This document shows, piece by piece, positions 8,182 through 63,190 of a DNA stretch of 64,000 bases. The notes beneath the pieces are model-generated. The model was given only the letters and a program-made list of their open reading frames with translations. It made no database searches and was not told the DNA's origin. Every line of letters starts with the position of its first letter. Position 1 is the first letter of the stretch. The stretch is from Chrysomallon squamiferum (lineage: Eukaryota > Animalia > Mollusca): assembly GCA_012295275.1 (NCBI GenBank), contig CM022665.1, forward strand, positions 48,050,001 through 48,114,000. The letters are read 5' to 3'. The translations under genes were made by a program, and so were the position numbers.

Positions 8182-11100
8182 AAACACACTTGACACAAAC
8201 ATATTTTAATATTACGTTTTCGTTTTTTAATTTCGTAATTACACAAATGAGACGATATTAACCATTTGTTTCAATAATAACAAATAGAATATGAGGTTCG
8301 TAACCATGACGAATACTGACTAACGTGTGTTTTTACATCTGACCATTGTCAGCTTATTTTAGTTATCTACTTACGTAATAATTCATCTCTGTATCAATAT
8401 TGACTTAATTGTCATTTTATTCTATGACGTATCTATTATTGCGAGTTGAAAGTCAATAACAGCTCACGAGAAACCCAGTGTCAGTTCAATGTGCATGCGT
8501 GGACAAACGTCAGAAGTCAAAGAGAGGCAAGCTGTGTCGCTGAAAACAAACATCGACAACTGCACATGTGTCAGACAAAACGCGATATTTAATATCAATT
8601 ATGTTGACTCAAGGTTCAGCTGTACACGGCTATTGTTGTGACAGAAATACAGTGTATCAAAACATTTCTACCTTTCTTACACGTTTTCTACCAGTTAGGA
8701 TGTTTGATACGAGAAATTCATTTTCTGGTCTTTTTTGATTTTCTTATTTTATCATTACGTGAGAAAAACAGCTTGCAGACGTATTTCAATTACACGTACA
8801 ACTGGCTCTGTGCTGAATTATTAGAATCCTCTCCCAGAAAAGCAACCCCCTCCCCCTGAATATCTCTAAGATTTCAGTGTTAAACGACGCTTACTTCTGT
8901 TAAAATATTATGGATTTATGGATCAACTGGATTCAGTATCTGTTTCACTGACCCCAGTCAGCAATATTGATCGCTTCACAAATAATAACGTAATTATAGG
9001 AGGAATGCCGCCATTTTGCTCGCTAACAACGCCAATTCTATAAAGTGGCCTGGTCTATGATGGTTTCGTTACGTCACAGCGCGCGATCAATTGATGGCCA
9101 ATCTTCAAATACCGTTCCTAATTGATACTGACTGAATAGCCAATTGACCACAGAAACTAATTAATGGCGTCGCGATTAATGAAAAAGCCAGCGCAGCTGA
9201 TTCTGAGTGCGTGACGTCGATCACTTGCAACATGCTGCTGTCGACTTCACGTCCACACAACAACTGTCACAGCTTTGTGTGTTGTCGTTCATAAATAAAT
9301 ATGATTTACTCTTCAGAACATCAATACTAAACTACACGACACGTATCCAAATCAATGATTAAAATTAACAACTTAAGATATGCTAAGTCGAATAACATGC
9401 ATTAAAATGAATAATACAATACATAACATACACTATGATTAACAGTTTTATATACACTAAAATTAATAATACAATACATAATATACAATAGAATTAACAA
9501 TTTCACAAGCACTAAAATAAATAACACATTATGCATTACAGTTAACAACTTCAGATAGACTAAGGTGAATAACACAATACATAACATTTACCATAATTAA
9601 CAATTTTACATACACTAAACTGAATGACACATTTTACACTAAAATTAACAGTATAACATACACTAAAATTAACAGTATAACATACAATAAAATTAATATT
9701 TTAACATACACTAAAAGCATTAACTAGTCTAACATACAATTGTTAAAAAATTCACATACACAAGATTGTATGACAAATACTAAACAGATGACTGACTGAT
9801 AATTGATTGTAAAAATTCATACACATGACGTAGTACACAAGATTGTATAACAAATACTATGCAGATGACGTAACACAGACAAGATTGTATGACGTACTAT
9901 ACACATGACGTAGTACACAAGATTGTATGACAAATACTATACACATCACATAATTACTCATAGTTTGAGGAATAAATGAGATTTCGTTTGAAGACAATAT
10001 ATTAAAATAATTTCTTGTGTTATATTTGATTCCAGTATATATTCATTCATTTTACAATTTTAATCTCACTACATTGTTGATGTTGTTGTTTATTTTTTAT
10101 TTATTTATTTATTTATTTGGTCTTTCTGTCCTTTGAGAAAATTTCCAGTTGCTAGAACTCGAACGAATTCTGACTCATCATCATCATCATCATCATTATT
10201 ATTATTTTTTATTTTTTATTTCATTTTTTTCTTTATTTTTTTTTTTTTTTTTTTGGTCGATACTGGAAGTCACCCGCAAAATATCGATTTTTCCCAAATG
10301 TCCGTCGTTTTTGTTATCAGTTGTATTCAAACAGTTTCTTCAGTAACTAGTTCTTATTTTCCATTTCATTGTGCGTTTTCCCGATCAAACCCTTGCCCAA
10401 CAATTGACTTTTATCAAAAATAGAAGATTAATGTTTTACTGTCTATTCAAAAATAAAATATCTCTAGTCTGAAGCGTTTCTTCATCAGTTTTTCTATTTC
10501 AATTTATTACACAAAAATCATACAGAGACTTCAAACGTCAGTAGCTGATATTTTATATAAAAACACACAGTTTACTTCATATAGCAACAAAACTAGGCAA
10601 AAACAAGGTATCAGCAAGCTGTAATCGACAAATTTATTCAATATTCCTGACTTTTTTACTGCATATTTATTGCAAGTCGAATGTAAAATTTTATTTATTG
10701 TAATGTATCTTTTATTTATTATGTCACGTAATAATGGCGTAGTTATATTAAAACGTGTATGAAATATGTTTTCAAAGTACGTAACTCTCTCTCTCTGTAA
10801 GTGTGTGTCTGTATGTGTGTGTGAGTGTCATGTGTACACTCGCGCATGCACACACATACACATTCCTGGAAATGGGATTTATAAAGATAATTAATATTAT
10901 GATGAATATATATATATAAATCTTTTTGTTTTTCTTTTTTTTTTGAAGTATGAAAACGGGACTTAATAAAGATAATTAATATGATGAATGATATATATAT
11001 ATTTTATTTTTTTTTTATTTTTAAACGGGACTTAATAAAAATAATTAATATGATGAATATATATATATATATATTATTTTAATTTTTTTTTTTTTTGAAG

Positions 11101-11200
11101 TATGGAAACGGGACCTAATAAAGATAATTAATATTATGATGAATATATAATTTTTTTGAAGTATGGAAACGGGACTTAATAAAGATAATTAATATTATGA

Positions 11201-11257
<57 letters not shown>

Positions 11258-14200
11258 GAAGTATGGAAACTGGACGTTCAACAAAGGCAGGATTATGAAC
11301 GCGGCTTTCAAGGAGGCTCTCAAACTCTACGACTTCCAGTGCATCGTCTTCCACGACGTCGACCTCGTGCCCGAGGACGACCGCAACATGTACACGTGTC
11401 CGTGGCAGCCACGACACATGTCAGTAGCCATCGACGAGCACGACTACAGGTAAGTCAGTGAGAGAACGAACATCAGCGAAAGATAAATTTGTTGTTTTTC
11501 TGTACCGATGGAGAAAGGCTCCCATCTATACTTAACATCCCGTCCCCTGTTACTCAAACCACACCCCGTCCCCCATCTGTAAAGCAACATCCCACCTCCT
11601 TTTTTTTTTTTAATCAATCAACCCCCCACCCCTCTGTATCAAACAGCACCCCCCCGTCCCTATCTATCAAGCGAGATCTAGTCACCTATGTCTAAATCAA
11701 CATGCCGTTCTTTGTCTGTGAACCAGACATCACAACGTACTAGTAATTCACGTCTGTTTCTTTAATTAGAAGAAGAAGACGAAAAAACATATATATTAAC
11801 TGTCCGCTTTCCCTGTGATAATGAAGATATTAATAGCTGACCCAGAAGAGCGCTGTAAACAGGTGGCGCTCGTTAGCACAGAAAAGCCTGCAGGGTGAAG
11901 TCTAACTAACGAACAGCTCCGAGTGCCTTCTTAACTTTGTCTAATCTCTGCTGCTCGCGCTGTCACGTGACCAGCAGCGCTGGAAACATGGTAGTAAGAA
12001 TACGGTGTTAAAAAAAAGAGAAAAAAAGACGTCAACGTGGACGAGGTTATAAAACCGTTTTGCAGGCGACATTTATAGAGAACTGGGATTATATTTCTCT
12101 GTAATTTTGACGGAACAGCTGTTGTCATTAGTTACTGCTGGTGATCACTGAGATAAATGACTGAGACGCGTTTTTTTATATATATTTTTTTTTTATATAT
12201 ATTCTATTTTTTTGTACTGATCACGTGATCTCTGTCCGATTTAAATTAACAACTGGACACGTGACTAACGATGTTTTCGATTAGTTGGTCGAGTCATGAT
12301 AATTTATTTTCAGAACGCATCTTTAATAACGTGTTTATGTGAAATCAATGCTTCACTTTTATCTTCAGTGACGTCTTTATGTTTCCATAAATAAATTGTT
12401 TTATTAAAGTAAAACTGAATAAAAACAGTAATCTCTCTCGACTCGGAAAAAATTGTTTCAATATAAAAAAAATTATTATTATTACTTTTATTTTTTTATT
12501 TTTAATTTAAATCAAAATTTAAACAAAAAATCATTATTTTCCGAAAATTGACGTTTATAGGCAAGTTCAGTAAATAAATTCGTTATTTTACTTATAGTAA
12601 AATAAAAACACACACACACATACATATACACACACTCACACACACACTCACAGACACACACACACACACACACACACAGACACACACACAGAGACACACA
12701 ACACACACACAGAGACACACACACACATAAACACACATATGGCATACTACTTGGAGAAGTGTTCAGTATAATGATTTCACTGAAGTATGACATACTAAAT
12801 GTAAATACTGTAGATTCTAGATGTTTTATGTGACATTGTTTCTACTGTAGACTCTAGATGTTTTATGTGACATTGTTTCCACTGTTGGTTGTAGATGCAT
12901 TTCGTTGTAGATGTTTTTTCTACATTGTTGTCTGTAGGTTTTTTATGTGACATTGTTTCTACTGTTGTCTGTAGATGTTTTATGTGACATTGTTTCCACT
13001 GCAGGTTGAAGTACGACATACTCGTTGTAGATGTTTTATGTTACATTGTTTCTACTGTAGACTGTAAATGTTTTATGTGACATTGTTTCTACTGTAGATG
13101 TTTTATGTTACATTGTTTCCACTGCAGGTTGAAGTACGACATACTCGTTGTAGATGTTTTATGTTACATTGTTTCTACTGTAGACTGTAGATGTTTTATG
13201 TGACATTGTTTCTACTGTTGTCTGTAGATGTTTTATGTGACATTGTTTCCACTGCAGGTTGAAGTACGACATACTTGTTGTAGATGTTTTATGTGTTTTG
13301 TTTTACATTGTTTCTACTGTAGATGTTTTATGTGACATTGTTTCCACTGCAGGTTGAAGTACGACATACTCGTTGTAGATGTTTTATGTTACATTGTTTC
13401 TACTGTAGACTGTAGATGTTTTATGTGACATTGTTTCTACTGTTGTCTGTAGATGTTATATGTGACATTGTTTCCACTGCAGGTTGAAGTACGACATACT
13501 CGTTGTAGATGTTTTATGTTACATTGTTTCTACTGTAGACTGTAGATGTTTTATGTGACATTGTTTCTACTGTTGTCTGTAGATGTTATATGTGACATTG
13601 TTTCCACTGCAGGTTGAAGTACGACATACTCGTTGTAGATGTTTTATGTTACATTGTTTCTACTGTAGACTGTAGATGTTTTATGTGACATTGTTTCTAC
13701 TGTTGTCTGTAGATGTTTTATGTGACATTGTTTCCACTGCAGGTTGAAGTACGACATACTCGTTGTAGATGTTTTATGTTACATTGTTTCTACTGTAGAC
13801 TGTAGATGTTTTATGTGACATTGTTTCTACTGTTGTCTGTAGATGTTTTATGTGACATTGTTTCCACTGCAGGTTGAAGTACGACATACTCGTTGTAGAT
13901 GTTTTATGTTACATTGTTTCTACTGTAGACTGTAGATGTTTTATGTGACATTGTTTCTACGTTGTAGATGTTTTGTTTTATGTGACATTGTTTCCACTGC
14001 AGGTTGAAGTACGACATACTCGTTGTAGATGTTTTATGTTACATTGTTTCTACTGTAGACTGTAGATGTTTTATGTGACATTGTTTCTACTGTTGTCTGT
14101 AGATGTTTTATGTTACATTGTTTCCACTGCAGGTTGAAGTACGACATACTCGTTGTAGATGTTTTATGTGACATTGTTTCTACTGTTGTCTGTAGATGTT

Positions 14201-17200
14201 TTATGTGACATTGTTTCCACTGCAGGTTGAAGTACGACATACTCGTTGTAGATGTTTTATGTGACATTGTTTCTACTGTAGACTGTAGATGTTTTACGAC
14301 ATTGTTTCTACTGTTGTTGTAGATGTTTTATGTGACATTGTTTCTACTTTCTACTGTAGATACTGTTGTAGATGTTTTATGTTACATTGTTTCCACTGTA
14401 GACTTGAATGTTTTATGTGACATTGCTTCTACTGTTGTCTGTAGATGTTTTATGTGACATTGTTTCCACTGCAGGTTGAAGTACGACATACTCGTTGTAG
14501 ATGTTTTATGTTACATTGTTTCTACTGTAGACTGTAGATGTTTTATGTGACATTGTTTCTACTGTTGTCTGTAGATGTTGAAGTGACGACATACTGCAGT
14601 TGAAGATGTTTTATGTTGTAGACTGTAGATGTTTTATGTGACATTGTTTCCACTGCAGGTTGAAGTACGACATACTCGTTGTAGATGTTTTATGTGACAT
14701 TGTTTCCACTGCAGGTTGAAGTACGACATACTCGTTGTAGATGTTTTATGTTACATTGTTTCCACTGCAGGTTGAAGTACGACATACTCGTTGGAGGAGT
14801 TCTAAACATGCGAGTTGAACACTATCAGCGAGTGAACGGCTACTCAAACATGTACTGGGGGTGGGGGGCTGAAGACGACGACATGGCGTACAGGTGAGTC
14901 ACTAGGGTGTTCTGAGCAGAACTAACGTGTCAACATATCTTCTTTTTCTTTTATTCAGAGAGCGTATATGTTGAATAAAAATGTAAGATAGAACTGTTCT
15001 GTTTTATTTTTTATTTTTATTATTATTCATAGAATGTGTTTGTTGAGTAAAAAGTTCATAATATTGTTCTAAAAGTATTAACTCTAAGATCATACAATAA
15101 TTCAGGAATTTGAAAGTGTTCTGTAACTAATTATCAATAACTGACCATTTCAATTTATTCTTTTATTATATAACAAAAAATGATAACTAATCACCTAAAA
15201 TATATATTGTATTCTGTGAGTTGTTGACTAGTTTACATGTTCATGCCAGTGTTGTTTTCTCCGCACTTTACAGAATTCTTCACGTGGGTTTGAAAATTAG
15301 TCGGCCGCCATCAAATCTCGCGAGATACAAAATGATAAAACACCAGAAACGTCGCCCTGCAGCGTGGATCACTAGGTAACTCTTCTCTTCAATTATACAC
15401 TAGTTTCAGTAACTCTTCTGTTCAATTATACACTGGTTTCAGTAACTCTTCTGTTCAATTATACACTGGTTTCAGTAACTCTTCTGTTCAATTATACACT
15501 AGTTTCAATAACTCTTCTCTTCAATTATACACTAGTTTCAGTAACTCTTCTGTTCAATTATACACTGGTTTCAGTAACTCTTCTGTTCAATTATACACTA
15601 GTTTCAGTAACTCTTCTGTTCAACTATACACTAGTTTCAGTAACTCTTCTGTTCAATTATACACTGGTTTCATACACTGTTCAATTATACACTAGTTTCA
15701 ATAACTCTTCTGTTCAATTATACACTAGTTTCAGTAACTCTTCTGTTCAATTATACACTAGTTTCAGTAACTCTTCTGTTCAATTATACACTGGTTTCAG
15801 TAACTCTTCTGTTCAATTATACACTGGTTTCAGTAACTCTTCTGTTCAATTATACACTGGTTTCAGTAACTCTTCTGTTCAATTATACACTAGTTTCAAT
15901 AACTCTTCTGTTCAATTATACACTAGTTTCAGTAACTCTTCTGTTCAATTATACACTAGTTTCAATAACTCTTCTGTTCAATTATACACTAGTTTCAGTA
16001 ACTATTTTTAATTATACTCTAGTTTCAATAACTCTTCTTTTTAAGTATACTCTAGTTTCGTTTCTTTTTAGTATACTTTTTTTTTAAATTATACTCTTTC
16101 AGTAACTCTTCTTTTAAATTATACTCGTTTCAGTAACTCTTCTTTTAAATTATACTCTAGTTTCAGTAACTCTTCTTTTTAATTATACTCTAGTTTCAGT
16201 AACTCTTCTTTTTAATTATACTCTAGTTTCAGTAACTATTCTTTTTAATTATACTGTATTTAATAACTCATTTTGTTAATTATTCTGTAGTTTAAATAAT
16301 TAATTTGTTAAATATTCAGCAGTTTCAATAATTAATTTTGTCAAATATTCTGCAGTTTCAATAATTAATTTTGTTAAATAGTCTGTAGTTCAAATAACTC
16401 ATTTTGCTAAATATTCTGCTGTTTCAACATTTTGATAAATATATTCTGAATTTCAGTAATTAATTTTACAAATATGTGATTATATTCTCGGGCGAGTCGG
16501 TTTAGGTTCAGTTTACAGTTATAAATAATAAGGCTAAGTAAATAACAATCCACATTAAAAAAAACACACGTTTATATCACATGTCAAACTGAAGATATAA
16601 AGTGTCATTTTTTACTGAAGCGATATGAGCAGTAATGTAGTTGTATATATGATATGTTATTTAAAGTGTTTAATGTACATATTATATAAATCACTTGAAT
16701 TATACAGTATTTAATATATATGGTATATATCCTGTATTTAATGTATATGGTATATATACTTTATTTAATGTATATGGTATATATTCTATATTTAATTTAT
16801 TCGGTATATACACTTTATTTAATGTATATGGTATATATTCTGTATTTAATGTATGGTACATACATTGTATCTAATGTATATTGTATATGTACTTTATTTA
16901 ATGTATATGGTATATGTACTGTATGTAATGTATATGGTATATATACTGTATTTAAAGTATATGGTATATATTCTGTATTTAACGTGTATGGTATATATAA
17001 TTTATTTAATGTATATGGTATATATACTGTATTTAATGTATACGGTATAATATACTTTGTTTAATGTATATGGTATATGTACTTTATTTAATGTATATGG
17101 TATATATTCTGTATTTAATGTGTATGGTATATATACTTTGTTTAATGTATATGCTATATGTTGTATGATGTATTTACAGGTCTAAACTTCTGCACACTGC

Positions 17201-17309
17201 GGTGAAACGTTACAAACTGGACGGACTGAACAGTGTCAAATACAAACTGATTTTCATTCACGAGGAAATTCTCTTTACACACATCATGGTGGACGTGGGC
17301 AAACCTTGA
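4697..17309 (+). CDS. Beta-1,4-galactosyltransferase-family (GT7) enzyme, bre-4-like beta-1,4-N-acetylgalactosaminyltransferase; 5'-partial; join(4697..4941,11262..11449,14771..14893,15274..15375,17180..17309)
   Basis: The spliced translation has the family motifs in order: [39 protein letters not shown] (DxD), [35 protein letters not shown]. All introns are GT-AG with matching phases (0,2,2,2). Stop TGA at 17307-17309. The N-terminal TM/stem exons were not found in the window. Confidence 0.93.
5090..5570. repeat. 55-bp tandem repeat, about 8-9 copies
   Basis: aaataactgtaaacatccactttgtaaaaaagaaaaagtgttactattttttca(c/g). Confidence 0.95.
5625..5897. repeat. 43-bp tandem repeat, about 6 copies
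   Basis: ctcacgtttgtaaagtgtgtctaaagttagttttaaaactgaa. Confidence 0.95.
6712..6893. repeat. Compound (GT)n/(GTCT) microsatellite
   Basis: Direct inspection. Confidence 0.95.
11262..11449 (+). CDS. GT7 transferase exon (YGNWTFNKG...FHDVD...HDY)
   Basis: Poly-T tract plus aag acceptor, AG|gtaagt donor, DVD motif. Confidence 0.92.
12790..14793 (+). repeat. Composite ~130-bp tandem array containing the 14771 acceptor and the first 23 nt of the exon
   Basis: About 14 upstream copies of ttgtttccactgcag|gttgaagtacgacatactcgttg. Confidence 0.95.
14771..14893 (+). CDS. GT7 transferase exon ([10 protein letters not shown]...[12 protein letters not shown])
   Basis: ctgcag acceptor, AG|gtgagt donor, WGWGxEDDD motif. 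Confidence 0.93.
15274..15375 (+). CDS. GT7 transferase exon ([11 protein letters not shown]...YKMIKH...WIT)
   Basis: ttacag acceptor, AG|gtaact donor, 102 nt phase 2-2, MxxH metal-ligand motif. Confidence 0.88.
15371..16460 (+). repeat. 33-bp tandem array starting at the 15375 donor and decaying distally
   Basis: gtaactcttctgttcaattatacactagtttca. Confidence 0.93.
16705..17165. repeat. 27-bp degenerate tandem repeat abutting the 17180 acceptor
   Basis: tttaatgtatatggtatatatactgta. Confidence 0.88.
17180..17309 (+). CDS. GT7 transferase last coding exon (SKLLH...DGLNSVKY...VDVGKP*)
   Basis: ttacag acceptor, DGLNS motif, TGA stop. Confidence 0.9.
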
Positions 17310-23375: not shown

Positions 23376-23546
23376 CTAGGGGTTGACGGCTGTTTTCAAC
23401 ATGGGCAGCGTGATCGGCCAGCTGTCCGGTTTACACTTGCGCGCTTCCTGCTCGTCACTGGTCAGCGGCTCAGCTTCGTGAATCGGCATCCGAGAACCCG
23501 TCACGTTCAGCAGCTTCAGCTCCAGCGGCCCCAGCTGCAGATAGTC
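23376..23546 (-). CDS. CCDC83: CCDC83-like last coding exon (DYLQLGPLELKLL...AVNP*)
   Basis: gtgtag acceptor, TAG stop at 23378-23376. Confidence 0.85.
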   Translation of the reverse strand, partial: DYLQLGPLELKLLNVTGSRMPIHEAEPLTSDEQEARKCKPDSWPITLPMLKTAVNP

Positions 23547-42506: not shown

Positions 42507-42977
42507 TTGGTTTAGTTATTAATTACGAACATTAGAAACAGTCTGCGATTTGAACTGCAAACATTGATTTTAAAATTTTACTGTTACTGGAACGTCAAAA
42601 AATTATTCAGCATTTCGAAAATTTCGGAAATAAAAATAAACTTTCTATCTTGATATTATCAGTATATTACTGAATTGTTTTTCTTTCTTTTTTTTTTTTT
42701 TTTTTTTTCTTTTTTGTGTGAGTGTGTGTGTCAACAGTTATAATTAAAAGAAACAAACTTTTGTTCTAAGCTAAAAGGGTAAATTTACTGAAGATCGCAA
42801 ATTTTTTCTGTATTAAATTTTGAAAGAAAACTTTTCACAACTTGTTAGACCTAATTTTAATCTTTATTCTCTTCATCCTGTGATTACTTAACGAATATCT
42901 TATTTCTGTTTATCAAAATGCGAAGTTTTTTTATTTCTAATAAGAAAGCGGTACAATATTGCCAATAGTTCACCAGT

Positions 42978-43012
<35 letters not shown>

Positions 43013-43891: not shown

Positions 43892-43969
<78 letters not shown>

Positions 43970-46546: not shown

Positions 46547-46577
<31 letters not shown>

Positions 46578-49210: not shown

Positions 49211-49241
<31 letters not shown>

Positions 49242-49258
49242 TTTATTTATTATTATTA

Positions 49259-49294
<36 letters not shown>

Positions 49295-49321
49295 TATTAT
49301 TATTATTTATTTATTTATTTA

Positions 49322-49390
<69 letters not shown>

Positions 49391-49400
49391 TATTATTATG

Positions 49401-49448
<48 letters not shown>

Positions 49449-49806
49449 TTAGGATGTTCGGGGTTTTTCAAGCGCAGTATTCACAAGAACAGGATTTACA
49501 CGTGCAAGGCGCAGGGAGACATGAAAAGCATGTGTCCTATAGACAAGACTCACAGAAACCAGTGCAGGTCGTGCAGACTCATGAAGTGTTTCCAGGCGGA
49601 GATGAACAAAGATGGTAAACTGAAATCTTCAGTCAAAATTTAGACTTTGTTTCTCAGCGACAAACTACGATTTGTTAACTTTAAAACAGTTTTTTAAAAC
49701 AGCGCTGTAGATTCAAATTTTTCATTAAACCAACACAAGTCCTTATTTTAATTCAGCATCTATTTTTATTTTTATATTATTATTATTATTATTATTATTA
49801 TTGTTG

Positions 49807-49838
<32 letters not shown>

Positions 49839-50396
49839 GATATGTTTATTATTAATACATATTATTATATTATTATTATTAATTTAATTTAATTTTATTT
49901 TATTTTATTTTATTTTATTTTATTAATTAATTGTTAAATGGCGGAACGCTTTTATGAATATTCATTTTACAGCCGTGCAGCACGAGCGAGGACCTCGGAA
50001 ACCTAAAGTGAAATGTCAGTCAAGAGAATCTCCGCCTTCAGTAAGCCAAGACACGCCCATTGACCTCAGCATTGCCAGAGGTCAGCAACACAGTCGACTG
50101 ACCTTCGCATCCGACTACTTCCAAAAGTTCCAGTTACGAAACGACCAGCAGATGGTGTATATGAGTTACCATGGCGACGGTCTGGTTGAAAGGATGGGTC
50201 TGCATGCGCCGTCTGCCTTCACGTCGCCAGCAGTGTTGCCGCCGGTGTTGACGTCGCAGCAAGATATCTGGCATGAGATGATGGCTCGTCTCTTGTTTAC
50301 GATCATCAGCTGGGTGAAACAAATACCAGCTTTTCTGATGTTGTCACAGTCCGACCAGGTAACAAACAGTCTTAGTCAGATTAACTCACACACCCA

Positions 50397-50456
<60 letters not shown>

Positions 50457-51820
50457 TAATGTCTGCATCCTTATTCCCGTCCTTATTATATTGCCTGATC
50501 ACTATCTCTATTTAAGTATCACGTTCTGATAGAGTTTAGCTATATCTAAAACATTTATTCCCTGGCTGCATAAGGAAAATATCATCAAACTGTTTAGATT
50601 AAAGTAATGGTAGGATTAGGCTGTGTTCAGCTGGTAGACTCTAAATTGACATCCTCTCCTCAAACGCTGTTGGTTTTGTTTCTTTCTCCAGACTGCTCTG
50701 CTATCGGCGTCATGGAAAGAGTTGTTTCTCCTGGGCGTGGTTCAGTGGGGTATTCCTGTGGACAACGGAGGGGTGTCGGCTGACAGCAACAAGACGAGCG
50801 TTTTTGGATTGGACTCCGCCGTCGTCATGGAGATGGAGAGACTTGGTGACACGATTAGTAGGATCAGAGAGATGGCCATTGACCCCACTGAACTGACGTG
50901 TCTGAAAGCCATCGTCTTATTTAAGTCAGGTTGGTAATGTTTACGTTCCTCAAAGCCATCGTCCTATTTAAGTCAGGTTTGTAATGTTTACTTGCCTCAA
51001 AGCCATCGTTCTATTTAAGTCAGGTTTGTAATGTTTACGTTCCTCAAAGCCATCGTTCTATTTGAGTCAGGTTTGTAATGTTTACATGTCTTACATCGTC
51101 TTACTCGTTCCTCAAAGCCATCGTCCTTGTTAATGTTTACTTAAGTCAGGTTTGTAATATTTACATGTCTCAAAGCCATCGTCTTACTTAAGTCAGGTTT
51201 GTAATGTTTACGTTCCTCAAAGCCATCGTCCTATTTAAGTCAGGTTGGTAATGTTTACTTGCCTCAAAGCCATCGTTCTATTTAAGTCAGGTTTGTAATG
51301 TTTACATGTCTCAAAGCCATCGTCTTACTTAAGTCAGGTTTGTAATGTTTACGTTCCTCAAAGCCATCGTTCTATTTAAGTCAGGTTGGTAATGTTTACT
51401 TGCCTCAAAGCCATCGTTCTATTTAAGTCAGGTTGGTAATGTTTACTTGCCTCAAAGCCATCGTTCTATTTAAGTCAGGTTTGTAATGTTTACATGTCTC
51501 AAAGCCATCGTCTTACTTAAGTCAGGTTTGTAATGTTTACGTTCCTCAAAGCCATCGTTCTATTTAAGTCAGGTTGGTAATGTTTACTTGCCTCAAAGCC
51601 ATCGTTCTATTTAAGTCAGGTTGGTAATGTTTACGCCTTTGTTCTAAAGTTTGTAATGTTTACATGTCTCAAAGCCATCGTTCTAAAGTCAGGTTTGCAT
51701 TTCATGTCTCAAAGCCATCGTCCTATTTAAGTCACGTTTGTAAAGTTTGAGCCTCAAAGCACATTTCATTAAAGCATTAAATCTACTGGATTGATGAAGC
51801 TTTTAGAATATATACATTAG

Positions 51821-51875
<55 letters not shown>

Positions 51876-52125
51876 AGACTCGCCCAACTTGAAGAACACA
51901 AAATGTGTGGAGGCTTTACAAGACCAGGCTCAAGTGATGCTCTCCGAGCACGTGCAACTGAACTACCCACGTCAGCTGGTTCGCGTGGGTCGTCTGCTCA
52001 TGCTCATCAGCAAACTGAACGCGTTCAAAACGTCAACACTGGAGCGCGTGTTTTTCAGAGGCATTGTTGGCAATATCTCAGTCGAGAAACTTCTTGGTAA
52101 CATTCTACATGGTGACGTCATATAA
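40603..52125 (+). CDS. dsf: NR2E nuclear receptor, dissatisfaction-like; join(40603..40630,48811..48891,49453..49614,49973..50358,50692..50929,51878..52125), 380 aa
   Basis: C4 zinc fingers [39 protein letters not shown]2E P-box CDGCSG, long D-box [11 protein letters not shown] (dsf-type rather than TLX-type), T-box [12 protein letters not shown], and LBD motifs WVKQIPAF..L...[23 protein letters not shown]. Intron phases 1,1,1,0,1 are consistent. The first exon is the least certain. Confidence 0.9.
45098..45465. repeat. 27-bp tandem repeat
   Basis: cacagtgaaagtagtgacagtataaaa. Confidence 0.93.
47985..48580. repeat. Two adjacent ~27-29-bp degenerate arrays
   Basis: ctgtcaacttctgttaatttcagta, then actgtaaacttcttttaacgtcagtaa. 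Confidence 0.85.
48608..48813 (+). repeat. 21-bp array of the NR2E zinc-finger exon acceptor, 10 AG sites
   Basis: gtgtgttgtgtgtgattacag; AG every 21 nt from 48620 to 48810. Confidence 0.95.
48811..48891 (+). CDS. dsf: NR2E zinc finger 1 exon
   Basis: [26 protein letters not shown]; G|gtaagt donor. Confidence 0.93.
49453..49614 (+). CDS. dsf: NR2E zinc finger 2 exon
   Basis: CSGFFKRS...[16 protein letters not shown]...MNKD. Confidence 0.93.
49973..50358 (+). CDS. dsf: NR2E hinge and LBD start exon
   Basis: VQHERGPRK...[16 protein letters not shown]; CAG|gtaaca donor. Confidence 0.92.
50692..50929 (+). CDS. dsf: NR2E LBD exon
   Basis: [14 protein letters not shown]...[10 protein letters not shown]; G|gttggt donor. 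Confidence 0.92.
50905..51760 (+). repeat. 47-bp array of 25 nt exon end plus 22 nt donor/intron, about 18 copies
   Basis: aaagccatcgtcttatttaagtcag|gttggtaatgtttacgttcctc. Confidence 0.95.
51878..52125 (+). CDS. dsf: NR2E last coding exon
   Basis: LQDQAQVML...RVGRLL...[18 protein letters not shown]...*. Confidence 0.92.
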
Positions 52126-53870: not shown

Positions 53871-55950
53871 GTTATAATGTATTTTAAAAACGTACTATTA
53901 AATCCAGTTTATACTGTGATACTGTTAATAAGACATAATTTTATCATACTAGTTATAATTTTATCATGATAAATAACAACGAAACAGTCAGTGGAGTACA
54001 GCTCAAGTTAAACAAACAATAATTACAACTTTGAAGTCAACCTGAGAAAAAGAAATCTATTTTTAGACATTATCAAGTGATAAACTTTATTATGGAATCA
54101 AGTATCATAAATGTTAAAATGATCATTCAATTTTTTTTTTTTTTTTTTTTAAATCAGTGATTTGATTTTGTAATAAACCTGATTTGATTGAAGAACTAAA
54201 CAAGGGGCTGTACTCCTCTGAACAACTTAACCCAACTGTGTAGAGCTGTTTACACTGCAGTTAAAACTTTACAAAATACACACCACATCTCCTGGAATGA
54301 CTCCTGACACAGCCAGCTTGCCAACACACAAATACCACAGAAACTGTAATTCTAAACCTTTTGATAATTGCCAAAACATGACTGGGAGAATACAGAAACA
54401 GCAATATTAAGAGAATTCTTAAAATAAAGACTTTTTTTTTTTTACACTGTCTTCACTGAACAGTAAACATGCATGTGTGAAGCATTCGCCGAGTAAAGAA
54501 AACATTTCTATCAAACATGATTAACTTTAAAAAAAAACAAAGAAATATCCAGTGAGATTTTTTTTAGTTTTTTACATTGTTTAAATGAAAGACATGGTGA
54601 TTATTGTAAACGTTGGTCCAAACACTTTGTGGAAAACAAACATGTCTCTGACCAGCCTGTCAATACCCAAAACTCTTCCCTGTCATGATACCAGACTAAC
54701 TTTCTGACAGTATACAAATTAAAACAGTGGTGTCAAAACACCACCAGTCATGCTAATGGAAATGGGCAACAGATTTGTAGATCACCCACCATAACAACAG
54801 TTCACTAATATACAACAGACCTGTACATTACCAACCATGGTAAGAGTTCAGTAATAAGCCATAGATTTGTACAGAACCCACTAACAATTGAGACACCAGC
54901 CTGACTGAGTGGGCCTGTGTTAAAAAAAGTGTTCAGTAGAAAGTGGAGATAAGCAGCAAGGCACACGTGAAGCCTGCATATTTCAAACTGATCTGGCCAC
55001 ACTCAACACACACAAAGCTAGCAGCGACACATCTACTTCGTGTATTGCACTCCTGGAATTAAAGTTTCGCGATGGAATGAGCATCAGTGACAGGGGAAAA
55101 CAATCTACTGGACAAACAACAGCTGTGTGAGACACGACTAACAAATATACACAGATAATCACAGTAACTGTACACTGGTGTTTTAACAACTGTACACTGG
55201 TGTTTTAACAATTGTACACTGGTGTTTTAAAAACTGTACACTGGTGTTTTAGTAATTGTATTAGTGATGTTTTAATAATTGTACACTGGTATTTTAACAA
55301 TTGTATTAGTGACGTTTTAATAATTGTACACTGGTGTTTTAACAATTGTACACTGGTGTTTTGCACTACTTGGTGAGCTAGCACTAAGAGAAGGCAGAGC
55401 AGATGAAATGTTACAGACAACAAGGTGGTAACTCATCACAGTATGTACATATGTATGTGTGTGTGTTTGTGTGTGTGTGGGGGTAGTTAAGTTTTGGCAG
55501 CAGGGGCTGTTCTAGACAAAAAAAAAAAAAAAAAATTTTTTTTTTTTTTTAATTATTTCAAACAAGAACAAAGAGAATAAAATTTAAATAAAAACTATTT
55601 GACAAAGCTGAGACGGGATCAGACCAGAGACTGCTGTGTGACAGACGAGTGTTTCTCTACAGCGTGCCACAGCTGTCCCTCCTCACTCTCGCTGTCCTCA
55701 TCACCCTCACCCACCCCGTAGTCCTCGAGGACATTGACAACACTGGCTTTCTGCTTCACCATCAGCTCCTCCGCCTGCTGCCACAACTCATCAACCTCAT
55801 CCTGCCTGACGGCCACATCGTCTAGAGTTACACAAGTAGTTTCATTGTTTGTATGACGAATTAAATCAGAATCAGACTGCCTGGAATCATTACCTGTCTC
55901 TCCAGACATGTCTCACTGAATTACCTCCCCTGTCAGCACACCTGTCTCAT

Positions 55951-58900
55951 TCAAGAAAGTAGATCTGAAATGTTCACACAGGTATCATTAACGTAGCTAT
56001 TAAATGTTCACACAACACATCAACACAATACTATCTATTAGGTTTAAACAATACATTAATATGAACTCAATATCATCTATTAAAATATAAACTCGACACA
56101 TTAATTTAACAGTATCTGTTAAATTTCTAATGCAACTGCAACTGTACATTAATATTAAGACAAGATTTTCCACTACATTTTGATGCAATATTCATAAATT
56201 AATTAAATTTAGGCCACAATGTGTTGTAAGTTAAAATTATCACATGTACAATTGTCTAATATGAAGCTATTTACTGTTGTTCAACATGGAGTTATATAAA
56301 GTTGTCTAACATGGAGCTATGTACAGATGTCTAATATGGAGCAATGCATAGCTGTGTACAGCTGTGTAAAGTTGTGAAACATGGATCAATGTACAGTTGT
56401 GTAATATGGAGCTGTGTACAGTTGTGTAATATGGAGCCATGTACAGTTGTGTAATATGGAGCTGTGAACAGATGTTTAACATGGATCTTTGTACAGTTGT
56501 GTAATATGGATCTGTGTACAGCTGTGTAATATGGAGTATGTACAGTTGTGTAATATGGAGCTGTGAACAGTTGTGTAACATGGAGCTGTGTACAGCTGTT
56601 TAACATGGAACTACGTACAGTTGTATAATATGGAGCTGTGTACAGTTGTGTAACATGGAGCAATGTAAAGTTGTGTAATATGGAGCAATGTACAGTTGTG
56701 TAATATGGAGCTGTGTACAAACCTGGGATATCTTGCCTTGATGACGTTTTTTCCTCGAAGGCGATGAACGGTGTTGGACTAGATTCCTCACAGTTGTTTA
56801 GCTTTAAAAGATCGTCACAGTTATCTCCCTTGTTTCCTTGTTCCTGTGTCTTCAACTGGACGGTTTTGTTAGACACAGAAAGGTCAATTATCTCCTCAAA
56901 GTCGTTGCCATGGGTAACAGTATCTGAGGTGCAAACACTATCCACTGATTTCAAGCTAATACTGAAATTATTGTAATTTACATTAATACTGAAATACACA
57001 ATTATTTTATTTTACATTAACACAGAAAATTCACAATTATTACAATTTACACTAATACTAAAAAAAAAGTTACTGTAATTTATATTAATACTGAAATACA
57101 CAATTATTTCATTTTACACTAAAACTGAAAAAACACAACCATTTTATTTTACACAAACACTGAAATGGATGCACTATTCTATTTCACACTAATGTTTAAC
57201 TAGACAATTACTTTATTTTACACAAATACTCAGCTAGACTACATTATTGTGTTTTACAGTAAATACTAAAACAGTTATTTTACTTCTTGTGAAATGACTA
57301 AAAATATTTAATTTGGTTTTGATTATAAACTGTTTGATTTGTACTAACAGTAACAAATAACACTGAGATGAATACACCTTTTACTGACTGCTGTGTTACT
57401 TGTGTTATCTACCAGACAATTAATGATATAGCACATACACATTTATTACTGAGTATTACCTAACTTGTTTTATCTGTCAGTACAATGCATAGAGAACCTG
57501 AACAACAAGTTACCATACTATCACTGAAATATATATTTTACATTGTCTTCCTTAATAAACAAAACATTCATACACTGTGAGTGTGTCACAAAATCTTCCA
57601 GTATCTCCTACAGATCATGGTAATAAAAATGTACTTGATTATGTCAGTAATAAAAGAAAACAGTAACAAGTTGACAGTTTACAGCATCCTTGGATACAGC
57701 TAGCTAATGTAATCTAAAACAGTGTAAGAGGCAACAAGAACTAGCCAAGTTGTACATGGCTGAAGTACAAAATAACAGAGTTCAGTTCAAACCTGTCCCA
57801 GTGTTACATAAACCTACTGAACATTCCAAGATACACATTACAGCTTTGCACACCCACCAAACAACTCAACAGACAACAAAAACTAACAACTGCGAGAATG
57901 GAACAAATCATTTAACCTGACAAACATTCAACACATTCAGACATTAACAAAACTGTTGTAGAAATCAGCATTATCTGAGAAAATACCTGTACGAGACATT
58001 CCCAGGTAACTCCAGGTCACCTGTCAGCCATGACAGACCTCGTTTACCTGTATACCTGTGCTGACCTCAATCCCAGTTAGCATAGCCTGAGTTTTCTAAA
58101 AGCTCGCTCACACAACCAGGATGAGACACACACCTGTACACAATGCCTGCAGGTCACACCTACCTTAGCACGCCGTTCATCATCCAGAACATTAAGTTAT
58201 GTCAACCGTGACATCACCGCCTCCTGTTAATTAGTTTGTTCTAGACATACACTCAGTGTGTCAACACCTTGTGTAAACAAGCACAAAACATTTGTGTGTG
58301 TCTGTTTTTTCTGTTTTAATTAAGTAACACACTCAGAGTGGCATCTCATGTTACACCAGTGTTTACTGACACTGTTGACATTAAAGATTTTTAACACATC
58401 AAATAATTTAAACACTGACTTTGTTTTAGTTTGTTATAAAAAGATCAATCCTCTCTATTTCAAATTTGTATAGGTATAAAAATAGTTTAAACTAAATTAT
58501 TTACTGTAATGATATATCTATATATATATATACACACATATATATAGGTACAATAGTACATATATGTGTGTATATATATATTGGGGTACTATAATAGTGA
58601 AGTTTCTTTGACTTGAAAATTGTATGATGAAACTTAATCATTATAAAAAAAAACAAATAAAATAAAATCAAAAATTTTGTTTTAATATACAACCATAAAA
58701 AAAAACACCCCAAAAAACAAATTAAAAAATAAAAGAAATAATTAAATACATTAAAAATAATAATAATAACAAAATAAAATAAAATCAAATAAAATAAAGT
58801 TTCCTAAAGTGACATAAATCTGTAAATCATTGATTTATCTTTTTAACTAACTGTTCTGACATTCTGATGTGTTTTAAAACAGTCAATATCTCAACTTGAC

Positions 58901-61900
58901 AGTTATAAATTGATACATTGACTCACAAGCTGTTTTAGTCAGAGAATTAAACATTTCTTGGCTAAATTAAACATTTCTTGGCTAAGTTAAAAATACACAT
59001 AACACATTTTATAGTTTTTTGTACAGCTTACGTCACTCATTATTTCAGTGTTTAACAAGATCTAAAGGAAACAAGATTTTTGGTAAATTGCAAGCAGGCT
59101 GGAGTCTGCAGATTTTTAATTATTTATTTAAGTAAAATTCAAAAATGGAAGAATTCACTGCTTAAATCTGTTTTTTACAACTAAAATAAAGAAATAAATA
59201 AAATATAAATAAATAAAAACCTAACAGTATTAAGTCACAACTCCTCACAAAGATTCTGTTGTATATAGAGTTTCTCTGCTGAGTGGACACACCATGTGAC
59301 AGCAAACTGTTAAAACTGTGTAGCAGTAAACCACACCAAGGTATTACACTGCACTCAGGAGAATGTGGTATCATATACCAGTGATTCTGATTTAGGTCAG
59401 TCCATGTTAAACCATGCAGTAATATGGAAAATTACAGCCCAACAATTTCTGAATTTGATACATACATACATATATATATAAAAAAAATATATAAAAAAAA
59501 ATAAAAAAATCTTGTTTATTTTGGTCTCAAATATTTATGAAATTTACAACTGTATTTACGTTACAAATCTACAGATGTCATTATAACTGTACAAGTCTTA
59601 ATAACACAGAGTAGCAAAGGAACAAGCAAATATTAGAGATTTACTTAATCTGTTTTGTTAGCTTTTGATTACTTGTGTTGTTTTGTTAGCTTTTGATTAC
59701 TTGTGTTGTTTTGTCAGTGTGTTTTCAAATCCTCTGAACTCTATAAGAATACAAATACTAACCTACTTGACAAGCTGACAGATGTACAAGACAAATCAAA
59801 CTGGTTTTATTTATACACAAGTGTATTTCTGTCAAAAGCCTAAGAACATACAACTCCTATATCTGTTTTATATCCACATTTTGCTGTAAAAATCTGGTTT
59901 ATCCTTGAAATGCCAATTCCAAAAGATTTTTTTCTTCATTTTTTTTTTTCTCCCTGACATAAAATATTTTAAAAACTAAATTATTGATTAACATAATGAA
60001 CTATAGTTTCCTACCTAAAACTCTCTTGACAGGAGTAAAACATTTTGTTATCCTGGATTACCTCATCGTACTGATTTAAGGGGACTTTTATATGAACATA
60101 TTTAAAACTCCAAATTATTAGCATTATGAATGAACAATGCTAACTCACCTAGATTCAACCAATTCTTGAGAGGAGTTTAAACATTTTCTTATCCTGTATT
60201 TTACAACCTGGTTTGGTTTTAAGGAATATTTATTTATGTAAAATATTTTAAAAACACAAAGTGTTGGTTAACTCAAAAAACAATGCTTACTCACCTAGAA
60301 TCGACCACTTCTTGAGAGGAGTGGAAAACATTTTCTTATCATGTATTGATTTGGTTTTAAGGAATTATTTATTTATGTAAAATATTTTAAAAACACAAAC
60401 TGTTGGTTAACTTAAACAACAATGCTTACTCACCTAGAATCGACTAATTCTTGAAACAAGTTTTGTTATCCTGTATTGGTTTGGTTTTAAAGAATATGTT
60501 TTTATATAAAACTGCTGGTTAACTTAAACAACAACAGCTACTCACCTAGAATCAACCAGTTCTTGAGAGGAGTGGAAAACGCCGTTGTGTGTGATGCCGT
60601 TCATGGCGGTCAGACTGGAAGCGCTTGTGCCGAGATCAACGAGAATCCCTGAGTCCGTGCCTGACTTCATCGTCTTGTCCTCGTCAGTGAGGTTAGACGA
60701 CGTCAGCATCACCAGGTCACTGAAAGGGTCAAACTCCCTGACTCCATTCCCCACAGCCTCCTTTGTTTGTTCATCTGACTTTCTGTTGTCCGTTTGTTCA
60801 CTCAGTGATGTCTCTCCACCCTTTTTTTCAACCTGAAACATGTCACTGAACTTGTTGTCCACTTCTATCATCTCACTGTCCTTGTGCTCAATATTAGACA
60901 TCTCACTGTCTTTGTGTTCAATAGTTAGACATCTCACTGTGTTTGAGTTCAATATCAGACATCTCACTTTCTTTGTGTTCAATATTAGACATCTCACTTT
61001 CTTTGTGTTCAATATCAGACATCTCACTGTCTTTGTGTTCAATATTAGACATCTCACTGTCTTTGTGTTCAACATTAGACATCTCACTATCCTTGGCTTC
61101 AGTACTAAACACTTGTTCGCTTTCTATATGAATTTTGTTTTCGCCGTCACTAGGCAGCTGTTCAGGTATATGTTTACACAGACCCTCAGTCGTGTCTACA
61201 TCTTTGTCCTCATCTTTGACGTCGTGCGTCTTGGACAAGTCCCCCTCCAGGCTGCGTGACAGCTCCCTGGCTGGCGGCAGCACCTCCCTGTCCAGAGCAA
61301 ACACCACGGACTTCTCCTCACCTTTCTTCTGCTTGTTCTTGCCCAGCAGACTCTGCAGAATCGGAGACTTGAACTTGGGCTGCTCGGTGGAGAGGTTCTC
61401 GCTCGACTTGCTCTCCACGAGGTGCTGGAGAAGAGGAGAGTGGAACTTGGGCGTGCTCACACCCGGGGTTCTCACACTGGGGGCACTCACACTGGGGGCG
61501 CTCACACTCTCCACAGTCTTGTCGACCAGCTGGGCTGGTTGTACTGGAGAACTCACTCTGGACGACGGCTTCTCTTCCGACGTCATCATGGTGGTGATGG
61601 TCGTGGATGCACCCGATGTTGTTACCACTGTTGTCATGGTTTCCACTGTTGTCATGGTTTCACCACTCTTGCTGGGAGAACTGTTCACTGACTTGGCTGG
61701 TTCTCAAACATGTGGAAGTCTGGTTCACCAAACTCTGATGAAGTCTGGGAGAACTGTTCACAACAAACATGATAGAAGTCTGGTTCTAATAAAACAACAA
61801 ACATTCACTGACTTGGCAGGAGACTGGTTCTAATAAAACAAACATTAACTGATAGAAGTCTGGTTCTAATAAAACAACAAACATTAACTGATAGAAGTCT

Positions 61901-63190
61901 GGTTCTAATAAAACAACAAACATTAACTGATAGAAGTCTGGTTCTAATAAAACAACAAACATTAACTGATAGAAGTCTGGTTCTAATAAAACAACAAACA
62001 TTAACTGATAGAAGTCTGGTTCTAATAAAACAACAAACATTAACTGTACTTGTCTTCACAATGAAGTGATGGGTATTCACTGCTCATCACCAAACATCAA
62101 AGATTTTTATTTAGTCACAAACATGTACCAATTTAAAAATTTAAAGAAATGCTTAAAAAACTCCAGAACTGTCACACTTTATAATATCAAAACATCTTTG
62201 ATGCAGTACTGGGTAAATCCCAACATCAACAGCACACGATGGCATTATGTAGCATTCTTTTATGAAATCATTATTTTATTAATTCATTCTCTCATTCACA
62301 CCAGTGACTGTGTATTCAAATTTAAACACTGCTGACTGTTAATTCACACATTTAAACTTCTTTACAGATTTACACTGAAAGGTTTTGAAAAGAGAAATTA
62401 ATAATAAAAAAAAAAAATTAATAAAAATTTACCTTTGGTGATTCTGATCCATCTGTTTTCACTCTCTTCATGATCATCTCCAGTCTCTGAAATAAAGCAC
62501 AGCTGTACTGGTAACACTCAACTCACTGTTCACTGCTCACTACGATGATTTCTTGTGGAAAATATTTTAATACAGTAACTCAATTCAAATATAAGTATCA
62601 ACTACTACAGACTGAACTTGTTTCTGTTCTGGTGTTATTACAAATTTATCAATGTATTTCACTAATCTTAATTAACAATTTTAATGTAAATTCAATTTTT
62701 TCTGTATGTATGTTACTAAAAACAAAAATATTGTGTTTTTGACATAAACAAACAAAACAGAGATGAATATTTATTTTACAGTGTCATATCATTTTTTTTA
62801 AATTTTTTTTTTTCTCCTTCTTCTTATTATCAGTATTATTTTTTTTCAGCTATCTCAAATTCCACATATCCCCAGTCTTTGTTTTCTGTTACAAACATCT
62901 CTAAAGAAACAAACTGTTGTCTCACATATTTCTAACTTTTCAATAAATACAGAAAGTTCTAACAGATCACAAGAAATGTAAAATATACCTAAAATAATTT
63001 TGTTGCCACAATTCAACCCTGACTGAGTAACAGTGAACTACAGAACACAAATCTAAATAAAACTAAAATATTTGTTCTAACACACCTTCTTTCTCTCCAG
63101 TCTTTCTTCCTCCTCTCGTATTTTGCGTTCTTGTCTTTCCTTCTCAAGTCTCTCAGCCTCTTCACGAGCTTTCTGTTCTGCTTCCTGTCT
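55951..63190 (-). CDS. MAP7: MAP7/ensconsin-like protein, 3' part; complement join(63190..63086,62486..62433,~61785..60546,56955..56723,55964..55951); more exons lie beyond the window (donor gtaagt at 63998)
   Basis: EEEERLERKK|RLEMIMKRV resembles the end of the MAP7 coiled-coil domain (ERKKRLEEIMKR) and is followed by a long Ser/Thr/acidic disordered tail. Splice sites are canonical. The large exon has a scrambled 5' edge and a 1-nt frameshift near 60924. Confidence 0.72.
56250..56720. repeat. ~26-bp array abutting the 56723 donor
   Basis: tgtacagttgtgtaatatggagctg. Confidence 0.92.
56723..56955 (-). CDS. MAP7: MAP7-like exon (LKSVDS...DFEEIIDLS...PFIAFEE...QDIP)
   Basis: Phase 2 acceptor matches the upstream donor; G|gtttgt donor. 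Confidence 0.72.
60546..61700 (-). CDS. MAP7: MAP7-like large low-complexity exon with a 10-aa repeat
   Basis: ORFs 60918..61688 and 60542..61087 join across a 1-nt insertion; AG|gtgagt donor at 60546; GC-rich, coding-like composition. Confidence 0.75.
61770..62046 (-). repeat. 39-bp array containing a MAP7-like exon acceptor
   Basis: Minus strand gttaatgtttgttgttttattag|aaccagacttctatca. Confidence 0.9.
62433..62486 (-). CDS. MAP7: MAP7-like exon (RLEMIMKRVKTDGSESPK)
   Basis: tttcag acceptor, AAG|gtaaat donor, 54 nt. Confidence 0.82.
63086..63190 (-). CDS. MAP7: MAP7-like exon (RQEAEQKAREEAE...ERLERKK)
   Basis: tatag acceptor, AAG|gtgtgt donor, 105 nt. Confidence 0.82.

Follow-up and report, generated by a model that had tools for sequence, protein, structure and literature searches.

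Four neighbouring genes and their repeat content

The window, a stretch of 64,000 nucleotides from contig CM022665.1 of the gastropod Chrysomallon squamiferum, holds four neighbouring, unrelated genes, in which we modelled 46 splice junctions. Gene A (4697..17309, plus strand) is represented by the last five coding exons of a beta-1,4-galactosyltransferase-like (B4GALT-like) gene (4697-4941, 11262-11449, 14771-14893, 15274-15375 and 17180-17309), with GT-AG junctions, an open frame and matches to PF13733 and PF02709. Gene B (23376..33283, minus strand) is CCDC83-like, with ten coding exons modelled; one further expected exon was looked for within the window and not found. Gene C (40603..52125, plus strand) encodes an NR2E/dissatisfaction-like nuclear receptor in six coding exons. 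Gene D (55657..63190, minus strand) comprises the last five coding exons of a MAP7-like gene (63190-63086, 62486-62433, 61829-60546, 56961-56723 and 55821-55657), with two joins backed by RNA contigs and a weak PF05672 match (E = 0.003, under the cut-off). Pfam searches of single-exon translations left six of 14 without a match.

Exons have a GC content of 0.49, as compared to 0.30 for the whole window, and tandem arrays account for 41% of the intron DNA. Those anchored at junctions occupy 10.2 of 37.4 kb of intron (27%), in line with the proposal of an earlier note on this DNA that introns are lengthened from their ends.

Arrays at exon edges

Ten exon edges, five acceptors and five donors, are flanked by arrays bearing spare copies of the splice signal. 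Their periods range from 21 to 140 bp, and the consensus units differ between loci, each matching its own junction, which bears out the view of the earlier note that they are products of local duplication and not of a single transposon family. Nine of the ten units cross the junction and copy 3-31 exon nt along with the splice site, and across these nine arrays the functional splice core is present in 63 exact copies. GT or AG is retained by many, but not all, copies (GT in 24/29 at 31594 and 18/23 at 15375).

Among the acceptors, the array at 11262 (10881..11275, plus strand) repeats a unit of ~61-83 bp with poly-T/(AT)n, and three decoys retain AG and 9-14 exon nt. At 14771 (12780..14793, plus strand), a higher-order 130-bp unit (37+37+56) has produced 14 decoys with an identical core and ~23 exon nt, while the array at 23546 (23538..24910, minus strand) has a ~24-bp unit with 4-9 exon nt and seven exact cores. 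The 21-bp unit at 48811 (48606..48813, plus strand) includes 3 exon nt, and AG is present in 9/9 decoys; only in this array are the nearest decoys in frame and stop-free, and use of the nearest five would insert in-frame 7-residue units. The AG|GT found at 14771 and 48811 is due to both exons starting with GT. At 61829 (61824..62046, minus strand), a 39-bp unit with 6 exon nt gives five mutually identical decoys with AG.

On the donor side, the 33-bp unit at 15375 (15376..16427, plus strand) begins at GT and copies no exon bases, reading CA|GT where the authentic site reads AG|GT; its copies decay outward (rho -0.77). Similar decay (rho -0.76) is seen at 28130 (27446..28160, minus strand), with a 40-bp unit, 31 exon nt and nine exact cores. 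Polarity is absent from the array at 31594 (30657..31598, minus strand), which has a 31-bp unit, 3-5 exon nt and 14 exact cores. The 47-bp unit at 50929 (50899..51748, plus strand) carries 12-25 exon nt, with GT in 17/17 decoys and five exact cores. Finally, the unit at 60546 (59960..60580, minus strand) measures 112-146 bp and occurs as three exact cores and one decayed copy; across the array, 8-13 exon nt are near-exact and up to 35 diverged. All ten arrays that the earlier note described as containing the splice site, usually with some exon sequence, do exist, nine of them with exon bases and that at 15375 with GT only.

To these ten junctions, seven more are added whose arrays end 3-18 nt away, and which, like an eighth array at 63998, had been missed in the earlier count of about ten. 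None of the seven yielded sequence derived from the exon (two gave no usable register), AG/GT is lost in most of them, and strictly they fall outside the definition of mirage minisatellites (see below), whose unit crosses the boundary. Five adjoin acceptors: a 27-bp array (16701..17161, plus strand) ending 18 nt ahead of 17180, a 53-bp array (30049..30185, minus strand) 3 nt off 30045, a 25-bp array (32597..32741, minus strand) 3 nt off 32593, a degenerate 34/35-bp array (56966..57230, minus strand) 4 nt off 56961, a site used in RNA, and a 34-bp array (63203..63447, minus strand) 12 nt off 63190; decoys at 17180, 32593 and 63190 are without AG. The other two adjoin donors, namely a 25-bp array (56243..56719, minus strand) 3 nt off 56723, with GT in 0/13 decoys, and a degenerate 38/73-bp array (29599..29863, minus strand) 14 nt off 29878, the weakest case. 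The eighth, a 50-bp array (63448..63986, minus strand), lies at the edge of the window beside a probable donor (GTAAGT at 63998), whose exon would fall outside; jointly with the 34-bp array it would fill a whole intron.

Coding edges other than splice sites are touched as well. The stop-codon segment of gene B is present in three copies and a 25-bp repeat ends a few nt upstream of the gene C ATG; by inspection, arrays lie at 2/6 coding ends (start and stop edges).

Junction excess, copy homogeneity and splice-site use

The earlier note had proposed a comparison with random placement, and its outcome depends on the null chosen. When arrays were re-placed in non-array intron DNA (array-end null, introns only), an array end fell within -20..+40 nt at 17/46 junctions against 4.0 expected (p = 2e-7), a figure to be read in the light of windows picked after viewing the data, a hand-corrected array list and a single selected window. 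Array ends inside the exon occurred at 9/46 junctions, compared with 2.75 expected (p = 0.0014; same null). For this test, two exon-internal arrays were removed, a mis-assembled array was trimmed to 61824-62046, 63203-63986 was divided in two, and simple repeats (6.8%) were masked, so that 11262 was scored as ending 2 nt short of the junction. A plain coverage null, in contrast, revealed no excess, with 9/46 junctions (20%) covered versus 27% of background positions, or 15/46 (33%) versus 30% when abutting arrays were included. We judge coverage to be the wrong null, since it ignores the expansion of arrays after their birth and their inability to cover exon interiors. An initial ‘terminal segment’ null (p = 0.01-0.46) was replaced by merged arrays because segments split inside arrays inflated the background.

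The excess forms a narrow spike, with the 17 junctions lying within -35..+18 nt of an array end and the next five at 33-111 nt; eight of the 17 ends are ≤6 nt from the junction (p = 0.016, post hoc). In length, anchored arrays exceed free arrays (median 461 bp, as against 219 bp; p = 0.02), and all junction arrays lie on the intron side, the reverse orientation occurring at 0/46 junctions.

The decay of identity away from the exon that the earlier note had described is clear in only three to four arrays, and free arrays show it at least as strongly. While the proximal third was more homogeneous in 12/16 arrays (p = 0.005), the size of this asymmetry matches that among free arrays (n = 22; median 0.027 vs 0.030), and identity to the end unit dropped with distance in 12/16 anchored arrays versus 21/36 free array ends (Fisher p = 0.20). 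No distance decay was detected at 11262, 14771, 31594, 48811 or 50929, and polarity was rejected as a general rule. Instead, the functional copy stands out as an outlier at 61829, 63190, 56723 and 63998, with functional-to-neighbour versus decoy-to-decoy identities of 0.82 vs 1.00 (61829), 0.74 vs 1.00 (63190) and 0.76 vs 0.92 (56723). At these sites, concerted evolution leaves out the boundary copy, as it does in mirages; such divergence was not seen at 28130 and 14771.

Independent DNA and RNA contigs cover 59975-62600, and with it the arrays at 60546 and 61829. DNA contigs from two runs (different samples and studies) pass from exon into array at both sites, and unit depth at 61829 is 5-6 times that of the flank in both, although short-read contigs collapse arrays and give no allele lengths. 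The same contigs confirm these two arrays as genuine and expose a likely assembly error, in that both runs bypass 120 bp of extra sequence at 61684..61803. The ~61785 position given for the gene D acceptor in the earlier note sits in this segment; the acceptor is at 61829. The assembly also lacks ~30 bp near 61643-61659 and has 1 bp inserted at 60924.

Where checked, the exon-proximal site is the one chosen, as the earlier note had assumed. RNA contigs (X8, X9) join 60546 to 56961, bypassing three identical decoy donors, which directly supports use of both sites; support for 61829 is indirect. The two RNA contig sets, from one study and of a type that drops rare isoforms, contain no decoy joins within 59975-62600. 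At 31594, 28130 and 50929, alignments with orthologous proteins run on from one exon to the next across the proximal sites, and at 48811 the Haliotis protein shows no insertion. Use of the nearest decoy would cause a frameshift or introduce a stop in 9/10 cases, and there was no sign of intron gain, of alternative junctions or of new microexons, which the earlier note had entertained.

Origin of the arrays and related systems

The snail arrays are mirage minisatellites and, this kind being already known, not a new element. We consider it probable that these 21-140-base units originate through ordinary slippage or unequal exchange, and that they are tolerated and held at the exon edge. The 41% share of intron DNA indicates a genome that forms minisatellites freely. 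A duplication spanning a junction would put all spare copies on the intron side, the frame surviving if the exon-adjacent copy is used, whereas exon-internal duplications would mostly be purged. Arrays are likely tolerated because splicing takes the exon-proximal site, as RNA indicates at 60546 and 56961 and as may hold elsewhere; at donors this would fit a first-site rule as in human F7 (below), and at acceptors, where decoys lie upstream, exon definition and nonsense-mediated decay of errors could serve. Unequal exchange would then turn over copy number. Decoys would homogenise and drift, the exonic bases of the functional copy would stay frozen, and the recognisable end of the array would move back to the splice site. 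As neither deletion nor overwriting of the exon is possible, an anchored array is likely to persist, and being harder to delete it would live longer and become over-represented. This last step would be only partly sufficient, and the picking of a striking window would add to the excess. Small, poorly calibrated toy simulations (15 parameter sets) returned a 0.7-2.3-fold junction excess under unbiased birth (12 sets), never ~4-fold, with the set that best matched the observed coverage and number of arrays at 0.84; when birth was biased 5-fold, the values were 1.7, 2.2 and 3.7. The narrow junction spike, for its part, counts against a broad shelter zone.

Given the shortfall of the unbiased models, a junction-biased mutation process deserves consideration, although we regard it as the less probable origin. 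As the earlier note suggested, exon-intron borders may be favoured birthplaces of duplications. The birth rate there could be several times that elsewhere, through a junction-coupled process that extends introns at their ends and supplies arrays of identical decoy acceptors skipped by the spliceosome. Possible causes include breaks coupled to transcription or splicing, nucleosome edges, or polymerase stalling at the passage from 49% GC exon to AT-rich intron, with repair copying the junction. The 4-fold excess under the array-end null, the sharpness of the spike, the one biased model reaching 3.7, the GC step and the description of mirage origin as unclear in PMC3087553 are all consistent with such a bias. 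Against it stand the coverage null, the single selected window with its post hoc thresholds, and the arrays at stop and start edges; moreover, survival combined with edge-locking can also yield a spike, and the present data do not separate birth rate from lifetime.

That the arrays are selected splicing devices, serving tuning, recursive splicing at the AG|GT of 14771 and 48811, or alternative exon ends and microexons, appears improbable. The 63 exact decoy cores and the in-frame units at 48811 might speak for it, but recent copying would be expected to leave decoys identical, AG/GT is gone from most of the seven abutting arrays, and the frameshifts or stops of nearly all nearest decoys, the lack of decoy joins in the RNA contigs covering 59975-62600 and the normal lancelet splicing reported from RT-PCR (PMC3087553) argue against a function. 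Introns created by tandem duplication (Rogers-type gain), with arrays as remains, are very improbable. Such a route has been proposed for mirages (PMC3087553) and human cases are reported (PMC2812944), but the snail arrays copy one intron end, the far end being unrelated or a different array (63191-63997, 14894-17179), a repeat scan detected no junction with copies towards the exon or at the opposite intron end, and the alignments to orthologous proteins are interrupted where the modelled exons end. The intron positions in B4GALT and NR2E genes are presumably old. Just as remote is an assembly artefact or chance outcome of high repeat density, for which the errors near 61684-61803, 61643-61659 and 60924, the missing gene B exon and the coverage null could be cited, but which the two-run DNA contigs and unit depth refute for 60546 and 61829, and against which the nested variants and higher-order units among copies, and the neglect of post-birth expansion and closed exon interiors by that null, also speak.

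Mirages are known from amphioxus (Adh3, the globins BflGb6 and BflGb9, troponin C and PGBD5; PMC3087553, PMC3902484). They consist of tandem 10-160-bp units across the exon-intron boundary on donor and acceptor sides, with AG/GT in many but not all copies and the boundary copy outside homogenisation (PMC3087553). Copy-number polymorphism and somatic instability are further traits of mirages. The snail arrays share boundary-spanning units, varied lengths, presence on both sides, partial AG/GT retention, normal splicing at the authentic site where checked and an unhomogenised boundary copy; they differ in belonging to a gastropod rather than a cephalochordate, in affecting four adjacent unrelated genes and in having been counted against a null (17/46). 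Our literature search, which covered mainly freely accessible papers, listed neither a mirage from a gastropod nor a test of enrichment across a genome. The earlier note knew of no description at such density; the kind has been described, and no published density estimate was found. The window offers a dense, countable gastropod example, whose ~4-fold exon-edge excess under the array-end null bears on mirage origin, and it illustrates, at 61684-61803, the errors of assembly and annotation to which these arrays lead at exon edges.

In human duplicated genes, variable internal tandem repeats occur at exon-intron boundaries, a minisatellite expansion like that seen here; in young paralogs they create introns or alternative transcripts (PMC2812944), neither of which was seen in the snail window. 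In intron 7 of human F7, the first unit of a 37-bp VNTR crosses the exon-intron boundary, and only the most upstream donor is used while identical downstream pseudo-donors remain silent (PMC1557585). The donor at 60546, likewise the most upstream of identical copies, behaves in the same way. F7, however, is one locus with donors only, whereas five of the ten snail arrays lie at acceptors, for which a scanning rule fails to explain the choice because acceptor decoys come first in the transcript. The acceptor arrays at 14771, with its 14 identical upstream decoys, and 48811, with five in frame, hence provide natural tests of exon definition versus first-come choice.

Gene models and arrays at their splice junctions

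The window consists of AT-rich animal DNA (GC 0.30), 30% of it in tandem repeats with a period of at least 15. Four genes were modelled by hand, using GT-AG junctions: a beta-1,4-galactosyltransferase-like gene (A, 4697..17309, plus strand; domain matches PF13733 and PF02709), a CCDC83-like gene (B, 23376..33283, minus strand; one exon at 82% to a Gigantopelta aegis protein), an NR2E/dissatisfaction-like nuclear receptor (C, 40603..52125, plus strand; one exon at 94% to G. aegis and 74% to Haliotis rubra) and a MAP7-like gene (D, 55657..63190, minus strand; weak PF05672 match). From these protein matches, the animal is likely a relative of Gigantopelta, a vent snail. The models comprise 46 internal splice junctions (9, 18, 10 and 9, respectively), a count two junctions short because the gene B exon for residues 177-207 of its ortholog (P0003) was absent from 28605-29877 and the rest of the window. 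The phases of the exons flanking this interval mismatch, and the exon was probably dropped from the assembly. Genes B and C lie head to head (33283-40603); between them, a GC-richer block at 34950-35500, which may be a mobile element remnant, precedes a 63-bp array at 35597-36314 that is free (not at a junction). The large exon of gene D contains in-frame coding repeats of 30 bp and 15 bp (60869-61111, 61456-61508). Judged by read contigs, the assembly has a 1-bp frameshift in this gene at 60924 and misses ~30 bases near 61650 (61643-61659), and the public RNA run X8 carries one additional 15-bp unit at 61485, a coding length variant.

All ten arrays that the earlier note had placed at exon boundaries were found in the window, at acceptors 11262, 14771, 23546, 48811 and 61829 and at donors 15375, 28130, 31594, 50929 and 60546. 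The anatomy it described was mostly right: in nine arrays the unit crosses the junction and takes in 3-31 exon bases, while the unit at 15375 starts at the GT and includes zero exon bases. The acceptor it had put at ~61785 lies at 61829; contigs from two public DNA runs, X1 and X2, skip 61684-61803, where the assembly reading frame is broken. Across the nine junction-spanning arrays, the functional splice core recurs exactly 63 times without a mismatch, and a 64th match, at 25537, is unrelated to any array. Another seven arrays stop 3-18 nt short of a junction; their copies mostly lack AG/GT, and no exon-derived sequence was found in them. One more adjoins a probable donor at the window edge (63998). 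Junction-anchored arrays account for 27% of intron sequence (10.2 of 37.4 kb) and for two thirds of all array DNA within introns.

A 28-bp array with an acceptor-like unit (pyrimidine run, then CAG) sits immediately upstream of the array at 48811 (47997-48581). It may have arisen earlier, either from this junction too or from an exon since lost. The predicted N-terminus of a G. aegis protein (P0001) resembles read-through of the intron end at 48811 and is non-repetitive, weakly hinting that the 21-bp array of this junction is absent in G. aegis, where annotation may differ. In gene C intron 1, a 27-bp array (45090-45510) gives way to a short unique stretch, and next to this, near 45504, stands a strong donor-like motif, possibly belonging to an unannotated exon.

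Array placement relative to chance

Repeats were called with our own lag-based detector, which returned no segments from 20 kb of shuffled sequence. The overlap with random positions by which the earlier note had proposed to judge the pattern gave no excess (9/46 junctions, or 20%, versus 27%; with abutting arrays 15/46, or 33%, versus 30%). This null is unsuitable, since an array grows after its birth and cannot cover the exon interior. A first segment-level test of array ends was weak (p = 0.01-0.46) because segments break inside arrays. When merged arrays (36 arrays, 22,104 nt) were instead re-placed in non-array intron DNA, an array end fell within -20..+40 nt of 17 of the 46 junctions against 4.0 expected (p = 2e-7), within -5..+40 nt of 14 against 3.1, and within 0..+40 nt of nine against 2.75 (p = 0.0014). 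The resulting 3-4-fold excess is probably an upper estimate, given post hoc thresholds, manual corrections to the list of arrays and a window chosen for this very pattern. A unit-length null for nine junctions gave p = 0.003.

Independent reads, site choice and polarity

Nine public runs from one organism contain part of 54001-64000, and four were compared over 59975-62600 as contigs only. X1 and X2 differ in sample and study, and X1 may be the source sample; in both, DNA contigs continue from exon into array at 60546 and at 61829, and the 39-bp unit reaches 5-6 times the flanking depth. The two arrays in reach are thus not assembly artefacts. RNA contigs from X8 and X9, two runs of one study, break off at 60546 and resume with sequence ending at 56961. 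Splicing therefore uses the exon-proximal site on both sides although three identical decoy donors (spare copies of the splice site) are present, bearing out the proposed exon-proximal choice at these two sites at the level of contigs, which omit rare forms and could let low-level decoy use escape. At acceptor 61829 the evidence is indirect: one short intronic contig accounts in full for the X8 depth of its bin, which argues against a decoy unit in the spliced contig. In alignments to predicted G. aegis proteins, one exon passes directly into the next at proximal sites 31594, 28130 and 50929, and a Haliotis protein enters the 48811 exon without an insert. Use of the nearest decoy would cause a frameshift or stop in nine of ten cases; the exception is 48811, whose five nearest decoys keep the frame and introduce no stop.

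In 12 of 16 arrays, homogeneity was higher in the exon-nearest third than in the one farthest from the exon (p = 0.005). The asymmetry did not exceed that of 22 free arrays (median 0.027 versus 0.030, p = 0.78), and identity to the terminal unit dropped with distance in 12/16 anchored arrays versus 21/36 free array ends (Fisher p = 0.20). Decay away from the exon, which the earlier note had overstated, holds for a minority of arrays: it reaches significance by itself at 15375, 28130 and 63190, is visible at 60546 (four copies only) and is absent at 11262, 14771, 31594, 48811 and 50929. The functional copy is an outlier in several arrays, with an identity at 61829 of 0.82 to its neighbour versus 1.00 among decoys.

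Origin of the arrays and known mirages

A duplication across a junction would drop the spare copy into the intron and leave the gene intact if the exon-adjacent copy is used. Such geometry alone would make arrays end at exons and sit on the intron side, and the reverse orientation occurred at 0/46 junctions. Donor choice fits the first-site rule of human F7 intron 7; acceptor choice, with decoys that are transcribed first, would presumably rest on exon definition and decay of errors. Slippage or unequal exchange would alter copy number and homogenise the decoys, with the exon bases in the functional copy presumably frozen, so that the visible array edge would retreat to the splice site (8/17 ends lie within 6 nt).

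The ~4-fold surplus at exon edges could come from the birth of duplications or from their survival. It seems rather likely to reflect survival next to constrained sequence combined with selection of the window. Anchored arrays are longer than free ones (461 versus 219 bp, p = 0.02), and two arrays border coding edges: one in the gene B 3' UTR (22590-23421) contains three copies (27-29/29 nt; at 22831, 23113 and 23274) of the stop-codon segment, mirage-like in arrangement at a coding edge without a splice site, and a 25-bp tandem repeat (40542-40596) ends a few nt upstream of the gene C ATG. Length and position alike fit survival beside any constrained sequence. Birth biased towards junctions appears less likely, though in toy simulations, too small and poorly calibrated to exclude either process, unbiased birth yielded only 0.7-2.3-fold (12 parameter sets; 0.84 for the one most like the data), and a 5-fold birth bias 1.7-3.7 in three.

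The earlier note knew of no description of the pattern at such density, a claim of novelty that fails: the pattern is a real, dense example of the known mirage kind, the amphioxus-type minisatellite whose unit spans an exon-intron boundary. A literature search covering mainly open-access papers listed no gastropod case or genome-wide enrichment test, and as far as searches reach, mirages are new for this lineage. PGBD5 and troponin C have been added to the mirage cases (PMC3902484), human minisatellites at exon-intron boundaries are reported to create introns (PMC2812944), and human F7 intron 7 uses the first site (PMC1557585), as does donor 60546 here. The junction-spanning arrays share every amphioxus mirage feature tested.
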